In this document: in pieces, positions 49,248 through 49,721 of the stretch
Layout: every line of letters starts with the position of its first letter
Numbering within the stretch: the stretch's first letter is position 1
IMG/VR virus record: IMGVR_UViG_3300025151_000048
Location: 1 to 52,814 of that record
Source of the DNA: a virus
Taxonomy: Duplodnaviria; Caudoviricetes
DNA: 52,814 nt
Direction: 5' to 3' (one strand)
Notes under the pieces: generated by a model
The model's input: the letters and a program-made list of their open reading frames with translations, nothing else
Told to the model about the DNA's origin: nothing
Database searches by the model: none
Position numbers and translations under genes: made by a program

Positions 49248-49453
49248 TAAAAGTAATACAATATGTCTTAGTAGGTGGAATATGTTTTATATTAGGTATA
49301 TTTTATACATTTTATAAAATTGACCAAAGAGTATGGGACGAAACCATTAATAAAGCATGGGACATAGAAAATAGAGCAATGAATTTTCCAGAGAAATCTT
49401 GTTATAATTGGCAAGATATTGAACTAATAATCTTTGGTGAAATACAAGAATAA
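49232..49453 (+). CDS. Small membrane-anchored protein
   Basis: 73 aa with an N-terminal hydrophobic helix. Confidence 0.6.
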   Translation: MGNKVIKVIQYVLVGGICFILGIFYTFYKIDQRVWDETINKAWDIENRAMNFPEKSCYNWQDIELIIFGEIQE

Positions 49454-49721
49454 GCTAGACGAGTAGGTTAATAGGTATGATTAAAGGCGTAATCCTGACG
49501 AAGGTGAGAAAAACGGCTCGATGATTACACATAACTGAATTGCTAGCACTTGACCGGAAGCGCAATAGCGACTCGAGGTTGGATAACTAGGTATGGCGTG
49601 GAGAAGGCATAAAGAGTATAAGTCTAGGTAGCGTGCACGCAAGTGCAAACGGGAGCATCTCAGCTGATTATCCCACTAACTACTGACGAGTAAAGAGGTT
49701 CGATTCCTCTTCTAGTTGCTA
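49453..49721 (+). ncRNA. ~265 nt structured RNA closed by a tRNA-like acceptor stem and T-arm
   Basis: AGCTAGA/TCTAGTT, AGAGG-TTCGATT-CCTCT, then G-CTA; nested helices inside; intergenic and GC-richer than flanks. Confidence 0.65.

Follow-up and report, generated by a model that had tools for sequence, protein, structure and literature searches.

A modular RNA with a tRNA-like 3′ domain encoded by an uncultured marine phage

Introduction

In MALAT1-mascRNA a tRNA-like 3′ module sets the 3′ end of the structured RNA lying upstream of it. Phage T4 carries two small stable RNAs of unknown role, species 1 and 2, beside its tRNA genes, and the GOLLD and ROOL RNAs are phage-borne and often lie beside tRNA genes. 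In plant mitochondria, as described by Forner et al. (2007, PMC1920247), the t-elements direct cuts by RNase P and RNase Z, and non-encoded C or CC is added. Here a noncoding RNA (ncRNA) locus of about 265 nt is analysed and compared with these systems. It occupies positions 49454-49718 (+) of a 52.8-kb IMG/VR virus contig from an uncultured marine phage (IMGVR_UViG_3300025151_000048); the whole stretch of 52,814 nt is referred to as the window. On balance, the locus probably encodes a stable ncRNA of an undescribed modular family carried by uncultured marine podophages, whose cultured relatives infect Flavobacteriia.

Results

Overall structure of the RNA

Comparison with relatives from viral and marine metagenome contigs indicates that the RNA is built from three tandem self-closed domains and not from one junction with a terminal acceptor stem. 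Domain I (49454-49547) is followed by a middle hairpin module (49550-49582) and by a tRNA-like domain (49585-49718), and the confidence in this anatomy is high. The 5′ part of the family consensus reads P1-ACGAGUA-P2-AUAGG-P3-CACR-P2′-GAAU..-P1′, the 3′ part AACUAG..arm..GACRRNUA-T-arm-CUAGUU-N-CUA. The fold energy of the single sequence is not better than that of shuffles (z = -0.63), so that the structural support comes from the relatives.

The 71 matches contain 49-51 unique Domain I sequences. Behind Domain I, a regex scan located a tRNA-like domain of the type found in the window (family A) in 45 of the 71 matches, corresponding to 34 unique domains, and none in 26; in L002 and L003 the tRNA-like domain stands behind a shortened or divergent Domain I. 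Model R2 finds 49 tRNA-like domains across 70 sources. The window itself scores 70 bits with model R1 at 49447-49554 and 84.8 bits with R2 at 49581-49721, but it is in both seeds and matches by construction, the independent support for its family membership being the regex parse.

Domain I

Domain I is an irregular self-closed hairpin formed by helices P1, P2 and P3 and an AGUA/GAA internal loop. P1 pairs GCUAG (49454-49458) with CUAGC (49543-49547). In one class, comprising 35 unique members, P1 is found in 13 strand combinations with both-sided changes at all 5 pairs, and 4.71 of the 5 pairs form on average, against 4.00 with shuffled partners (maximum 4.29, 2000 shuffles); the second class displays four combinations of an 8-bp version. 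P2 is formed by GGUUA (49466-49470) and UAACU (49532-49536), is 100% paired, and takes the form G(G/C)UUA:UAA(C/G)U across the family, with pair 2 being G-C in 33/49 and C-G in 16/49 with zero exceptions. Jointly, P1 and P2 have a covariation score of 0.269, which none of 500 shuffles attains (0.079); with slid partners the maximum is 0.095. P3 (49475-49528) is the variable apical hairpin, occupied in the window by cassette E, and is closed by the invariant pair G49475:C49528. Applied to the 49 sequences with structure-free input, RNAalifold returned P2, this G:C pair and four P3 base pairs, for each of which 3-5 pair types occur.

Domain I is the hallmark of the family, and an internal loop lies between its helices P1 and P2. 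The 5′ side of this loop, J1/2 (ACGAGUA, 49459-49465), is invariant in 49/49 sequences, positions 3-7 being fixed by the search pattern and the leading AC being free. Its 3′ side, J2/1 (GAAUUG, 49537-49542), begins with an invariant GAAU, which is in the search pattern, and continues with UG, AG or AA. In its letters, ACGAGUA/GAAUUG may correspond to a bulged-G (sarcin-ricin/loop E) motif, whose consensus places AGUA opposite GAA between two helices; the search pattern itself fixed these letters. The invariance of the loop argues for a bound partner of Domain I. An analogy with T-box Stem I was rejected, as the variable P3 leaves Domain I without a conserved distal platform, and K-turn readings of the loops were considered and dropped.

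The tRNA-like domain

The tRNA-like domain is a compact 3′ unit that reproduces the top half of a tRNA without the anticodon. Its 6-bp acceptor, AACUAG/CUAGUU, is stacked on a 6-bp T-arm to give 12 bp. All 34 unique domains display the same order 3′ of Domain I, namely AACUAG, 3 nt, the variable arm, GACRRNUA, the T-arm, CUAGUU, the discriminator and CUA. The acceptor 5′ strand AACUAG (49585-49590), present in all 34, is invariant and fully paired with CUAGUU in 28/28 sequences; the 3′ strand, the discriminator G49718 and the trailer CUA occupy 49712-49721. The T-arm (49693-49711), which the sequence-only reading of the window (made by a model without database searches) had seen, is canonical and consists of the stem AAGAGG/CCUCUU (49693-98 and 49706-11) and the loop UUCGAUU (49699-705). 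It is 96.4% paired, and compensatory changes affect the two outer pairs of its stem, as in UUGAGG/CCUCAA of locus L071. The linker GACGAGUA (49685-49692) leads from the arm to the T-stem; the form GACRRNUA was required by the regex (45/71), and GACG and UA are invariant in 28/28.

A single variable arm (49594-49682) replaces the D and anticodon arms and comprises helix P5a, helix P5b, AGAA, helix P6 and the GAUUAUC loop strand (49666-72). P5a (UGG:CUA, 49594-96:49680-82) closes the arm and is 98.8% paired with one-sided changes. P5b (GUGG:CCAC, 49598-601:49673-76) covaries across 13 unique arms, GUGG:CCAC being exchanged for AUUGG:CCAAU or AAUGG:CCAUU, with U-A, G-C and A-U at one position where pairing is unbroken. 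The apical P6 (GGC:GCU, 49606-08:49663-65) carries a 54-nt insert that includes the hairpin GCAC-GCAA-GUGC (49635-49646), which the earlier reading had picked out; it rests on the sequence and the minimum-energy fold and is seen in the window only. Across arms of the window's type the P6 loop measures 4-7 nt or holds an insert of 30 or 54 nt, and the segment replacing the D and anticodon arms, counted as the arm plus the six bases before the linker, ranges from 15 to 130 nt. Over the whole tRNA-like domain 88.4% of cells are paired, compared with 83.7% in shuffles (0/500) and 34-58% with slid partners.

With respect to canonical tRNA (RF00005), the acceptor stacked on a T-arm with a UUCRAnn loop is present (acceptor 100% and T-stem 96.4% paired in 28 sequences), whereas the D-arm and the anticodon arm with its 7-nt loop are absent, the one variable arm standing instead. 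ARAGORN, run over 54 loci, made one call, a ‘tRNA-Stop, anticodon tta’ at L046 4169-4266 (-), which is probably a chance fit. The discriminator is A in 32/34 and G in 2/34 domains, the window having G. This G, together with C:G as pair 3:70, bears out the earlier remark that the domain is without alanine identity. An N-CUA trailer follows 33/34 family-A domains, and likewise 14/15 unique real phage tRNAs and 13/14 alanine-type mini domains. The base 5′ of the acceptor is U in 25/28.

The middle hairpin

The middle module (49550-49582) is optional and is represented by 9 unique copies. In the window it consists of helix M1 (UUGACC/GGUUGG), a GGA/CGA loop, helix M2 (AGCGC/GCG(A)CU) and an AAUA cap, which is swapped for hairpins of 34-58 nt in the 8 other copies. 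The M2 core is compensatory, CGC:GCG being found in 5/9 and CAC:GUG in 4/9, and GGAAG..ACUCGA changes jointly to GGAGG..ACCCGA in L002 and L054. The motif CUGACGAG occurs in some inserts and was considered as a hammerhead; it is not conserved and has no GAAA partner.

A terminally closed fold compared with the relatives

The sequence-only reading had folded the same region into a multi-junction RNA closed by AGCTAGA/TCTAGTT. This stem forms 7/7 pairs in the window, but does so in only 10/37 unique relatives, and 17/37 have at most 3/7. The internal AACTAGN forms 7/7 pairs with the 3′ strand TCTAGTT in 33/37 and 6/7 in 4/37, and the 5′ strand of the proposed stem, GCUAG, covaries with its local partner CUAGC (49543-47) in P1. 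The long helix AGTAG-GTTA/TAAC-TACT fares similarly: the partner that covaries with G(G/C)UUA is the local UAA(C/G)U, not the distal strand, in agreement with RNAalifold. The strands of the helices CATAACT/AGGTATG, TTGCTA/TAGCGA, GGTT/AACT and GG-ATGATTA/TGATTATCC lie in other covarying helices or in internal loops. A tmRNA-like (transfer-messenger RNA-like) topology is not retained, since the acceptor closes only the compact 3′ unit, which two self-closed domains precede.

The motif GACGAGTA does occur twice, at 49458 and at 49685, and had been taken to suggest an insertion into a mini-tRNA module. However, its 5′ copy belongs to Domain I, which is also fused to other 3′ RNAs without a second copy (26/71), so that the pair does not represent a target-site duplication. 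Judged from these alignments, the earlier observation is partly confirmed and its interpretation partly supported, while its fold is largely wrong.

Modularity and presence in RNA libraries

Five hairpin cassettes each occur in two or three structural places, which include P3 of Domain I, the arm of the tRNA-like domain, the linker and other RNAs of the island. L047 and L057 contain the P3 cassette of the window in their own P3, and L046 and L074 have a related form in the tRNA-like arm. Domain I is elsewhere fused to another RNA plus an alanine-type mini domain, or leads into tRNA-Met. Between Domain I and the alanine-type mini domain lies a second RNA type, which starts with GGCGGCAUAC.GGUCA and contains AAAACAGAAA; it stands behind Domain I in L009, L013, L016, L018, L020, L044 and L045, and also at L002 4150-4260.

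Words of the window stretch are shared by 24 sequencing runs, 6 of which are RNA libraries, and contigs of four of these (X3, X20, X22 and X24) were compared. The X3 contig, 197 nt long, equals 49460-49652 with 0 differences and crosses from Domain I into the tRNA-like domain. The X20, X22 and X24 contigs, from three other studies, follow Domain I to 49546 and then continue into the second RNA type. The flanking open reading frames (ORFs) are not covered by the RNA-library contigs, a gap that proves nothing. Contig starts at 49455-49468 were not used as RNA ends, as they may be assembly breaks at the edge of a strain-shared block. The family is real, conserved and apparently expressed.

Search for relatives and known families

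The relatives were gathered by exact-pattern scans with motifs of the window, a procedure that imposes part of the motif invariance and misses distant members. Scans of viral contigs gave 3, then 4 real (of 5) and then 8 real (of 10) matches; the matches in L005, L007 and L012 were false positives inside coding sequence and were removed. A single scan of marine metagenomes gave 61 contigs, and a scan of 185,579 species genomes gave 1 contig (L076 990-1074). L076 is a 4.8-kb contig binned in a Leucothrix metagenome-assembled genome (MAG) and is probably a mis-binned phage contig. The RNA region and locus L066 had no blastn match among 50,697 phage records, and the 147-aa neighbour protein, used as a probe, led to no related locus.

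Rfam, scanned over 47000-52814, contains nothing that matches 49453-49721, neither at the gathering score nor at E ≤ 10; on 12 further loci at E ≤ 1 it returned only tRNA, the ends of tmRNA and weak antisense matches. Thus the Rfam check proposed by the sequence-only reading matched no known family, its call of an unclassified ncRNA with a tRNA-like end stands, and the homologue collection that it also proposed was run and revealed covariation. Literature searches found no paper describing the family, which may be among the 8,495 unnamed IMG/VR candidates reported in PMC10690425.

Genomic context

The region 49453-49721 lies directly 3′ of the stop of a 73-aa ORF (49232-49453) on the + strand, and the next ORF (49735-49929, +) begins 13 nt past 49721. 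Inside the RNA region there is no + strand ORF of at least 30 aa. This ORF-free RNA island on the + strand has a GC content of 44-48%, compared with about 25-30% in its AT-rich surroundings. An AT-rich stretch (..UACGAAUAUUAAUGGAUAAUAUAAUAAA..) separates the tRNA-like domain from the next ATG in L006, L019, L046, L060 and others, and resembles a promoter-like motif noted earlier elsewhere in the window. ARAGORN detected no tRNA or tmRNA at the RNA locus, its sole call on the window being tRNA-Met at 51426-51500.

The capsid-like and portal proteins of the contig share 38-54% identity with their counterparts in podophages that infect marine Flavobacteriia, namely the Flavobacterium elemo phages, Cellulophaga phi40:1 and Maribacter phage Panino. 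PHROGs identified a portal protein, a terminase and GroEL on the contig, the last being a phage GroEL-type chaperonin at 44130-45695 (-) (phrog_5725, E = 1e-130).

Neighbouring tRNA-like elements

The window contains further tRNA-shaped elements. In a minimal tRNA top half at 47855-47900 the acceptor has 7 bp (UGAUAUG/CAUAUCA), the linker 11 nt, and the T-arm is followed by A-CUA; the element lies directly past an ORF stop, about 20 nt before the next ATG, and its R2 match is weak (18.8 bits). An alanine-type tRNA-like domain with G3:U70 and discriminator A is located at 50918-51003. It matches both ends of the Rfam tmRNA model only, with 41.9 bits (cut-off 47), and has 7 nt where the model has 288. 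The fetched loci contain fourteen unique alanine-type relatives of 78-134 nt, 13 of them followed by CUA.

Between this element and tRNA-Met, 51004-51425 forms an ORF-poor stretch of 420 nt with 41-53% GC and no Rfam match. A block within it is conserved in L008 and L011, where it stands directly behind Domain I, and an X3 RNA-library contig covers 51011-51053. The tRNA(CAU) genes by the RNA island (51426-51500 in the window and 14 unique genes in the loci) display a weak or mismatched, initiator-like 1:72 pair (G, U or A against A or G) and have CUA after the discriminator.

L080 1501-1599 corresponds to positions 4937-5035 of the genome of the cultured relative Panino (PP540027.1), an unannotated intergenic tRNA-like element without anticodon that ARAGORN does not call. 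It has the acceptor UGUGGGU/ACCCACA, a T-arm and U-CUA.

Discussion

Proposed function of the RNA

The preferred reading is that of a stable ncRNA whose tRNA-like domain would act as a handle for the tRNA-maturation enzymes of the host. RNase P would cut at 49584/85, and RNase Z would cut after G49718 with subsequent CCA addition, giving the RNA defined and protected ends. These cuts could also yield two RNAs, one of about 131 nt that holds Domain I and the middle module and is closed by P1, and a tRNA-like one of about 134 nt. Processing by the host is suggested by the 12 stacked base pairs, the intact T-loop, the U before the acceptor (25/28) and the N-CUA trailer shared with real phage tRNAs. 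By analogy with the t-elements of plant mitochondria, we infer that RNase P, RNase Z and the CCA-adding enzyme of the host would set the RNA ends. The matured RNA would then likely bind a host or phage factor through the Domain I loop, or serve as a tRNA decoy. Confidence in this mechanism is moderate to low.

Several observations weigh against this reading. The acceptor never varies (28/28); the case for its pairing is conserved complementarity together with the poor fit of the alternative partner, not covariation. Much of the sequence invariance of Domain I was imposed by the exact-pattern searches. The contigs from RNA runs are assembled, carry no information on ends, strand or level, and could include DNA carry-over; if the X3 contig does represent RNA, it crosses the proposed RNase P site and an uncut form exists. 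The neighbouring proteins and small ORFs give no functional clue, Pfam and PHROGs yielding nothing related to RNA. No cultured phage among six records (Panino, elemoF, MW202828, phi40:1, phi13:2 and Gundel_1) has the family, the best E value of R1 being 0.43. Apart from Panino 4937-5035, R2 gave only weak matches in these records (E 0.03-0.7); of three that were looked at more closely, two, in Panino, coincide with called tRNAs, and one, in phi40:1, looks like an uncalled tRNA within a tRNA array. Finally, AGUAG of Domain I and CUAYY before the T-arm linker form 5/5 pairs in 16/37 and 4/5 pairs in 21/37 relatives, and on the basis of this complementarity the two could be in contact.

Alternative explanations

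The locus could be a cis-acting processing and stability element of an early polycistronic transcript, with the tRNA-like domain directing cuts by RNase P and RNase Z, Domain I protecting the ends of neighbouring mRNAs and no RNA acting in trans, an explanation that we consider possible but unlikely. In agreement with it, 3.6 kb of the window contain four tRNA-shaped elements that share the N-CUA trailer, and an ORF starts 14-23 nt past the tRNA-like domain in 11/36 unique cases (16 nt in the window). The t-elements, as described in PMC1920247, offer a precedent for such processing. However, the other 25/36 have no close ORF and continue with another structured RNA or an AT-rich promoter-like stretch. 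The proposal that the domain always makes a short leader for the next gene was thus rejected, and pure punctuation does not explain the family. Furthermore, a protective hairpin requires no invariant 7/6-nt internal loop, and the element is found in RNA-library contigs of four studies.

An active tRNA mimic, in which a host enzyme would bind or charge the CCA-tailed domain and the domain would act as decoy or hijacker, is rather improbable. Candidate partners are EF-Tu, an aminoacyl-tRNA synthetase and defence enzymes that modify or cleave tRNA. The intact T-loop and the 12-bp minihelix would suit such a role, these phages also encode a tRNA-like domain of the alanine type (G3:U70, discriminator A) that lacks a coding part, and titration of SmpB has been proposed, according to PMC4131195, for a similar molecule of mycobacteriophage DS6A. 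In contrast, the window's domain has C3:G70 in place of the alanine identity and the family has no conserved anticodon arm; moreover, the discriminator is not fixed (A in 32/34, G in 2/34), and the single ARAGORN call among the 54 loci has a stop anticodon.

An equally tentative reading sees the family as an RNA repertoire built by recombining a few hairpin cassettes onto two fixed parts. One fixed part would be the 5′ hairpin with its S-turn-type loop, recruiting a host or phage factor, and the other the 3′ tRNA mimic without anticodon, matured, CCA-tailed and possibly charged by enzymes of the host. If this were true, the RNA of Domain I and the tRNA-like domain would be a trans-acting device in which a handle for the tRNA machinery is joined to a second binding module; it would be more than a processing signal and could, for example, divert a translation or tRNA-surveillance factor in early infection.

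A terminally closed tmRNA-like multi-junction RNA, for whose origin a mini-tRNA module would have received an insert of about 230 nt and GACGAGTA would be the target duplicated in the process, is very improbable. Although AGCUAGA/UCUAGUU pairs 7/7 in the window, where GACGAGTA stands twice, the closing stem forms three pairs or fewer in 17/37 relatives, both 5′ strands, GCUAG and G(G/C)UUA, covary locally, and Domain I bears GACGAGTA without a family-A tRNA-like domain in 26/71. Readings as a tmRNA tag frame or a group I intron were dropped. Least credible of all is a self-splicing intron, self-cleaving ribozyme or mobile RNA in a tRNA-like gene, or a tRNA-gene remnant serving as attachment site, which the GC-rich structured core, repeated end motifs and cassette mosaicism might recall. 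No Rfam intron or ribozyme was found at E ≤ 10 (47000-52814) or E ≤ 1 (12 further loci), and at those equivalent junctions within the repeat that would end the intron in G, the base preceding the 5′ junction is G and not U. The block has both acceptor strands and RNA-level covariation throughout, and the single hit among the 185,579 species genomes, on the 4.8-kb MAG contig, gives no sign of host integration.

Significance

The family exemplifies how under-annotated phage RNAs are, having strong covariation, about 70 marine members and a presence in RNA libraries of four studies, but no Rfam entry. Its build is unusual, a tRNA top half standing behind a conserved hairpin and cassettes moving between positions. 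Taken with the alanine-type mini domain, the 420-nt RNA and tRNA-Met, it suggests that phages of Flavobacteriia use the tRNA-maturation machinery of the host on early transcripts; a like element is present in the cultured relative Panino.

Comparison with known systems

MALAT1-mascRNA and species 1 and 2 of T4 are analogies only. GOLLD and ROOL are, like the phage RNA, ornate structured RNAs as presented in bioRxiv 10.1101/2024.12.08.627333, but the phage RNA is much smaller and has no Rfam match to either.

The tmRNA (RF00023), and in particular the phage-encoded tmRNA of DS6A that, in the account of PMC4131195, is reduced to its tRNA-like domain, shares with the phage RNA an acceptor and a T-arm without an anticodon arm. 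The two differ in that tmRNA has G3:U70 where the phage RNA has C3:G70, and in that the tmRNA acceptor brings the two RNA ends together and encloses a long helix and pseudoknots, whereas the 5′ end of the phage RNA forms the local P1. A short 5′ linker (3 nt) and a long 3′ linker distinguish the phage RNA from the alanine-type element at 50918-51003, in which this arrangement is reversed. ARAGORN and Rfam gave no tmRNA match on 49453-49721, and the region has no tag reading frame with a resume codon and a stop. Hairpin inserts of arbitrary length, located at corresponding sites, distinguish the relatives from one another.

The t-elements described in PMC1920247 resemble the phage RNA in being non-decoding tRNA-like folds with a conserved T-arm located within longer transcripts. 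In contrast to the phage RNA they are organellar and, in that account, have no attached Domain I or cassette swapping, and cleavage is shown for them and proposed here for the phage RNA. By analogy, the phage RNA would work most like a t-element, or like a non-coding tRNA-like domain of the DS6A type, to which a conserved second domain has been added.

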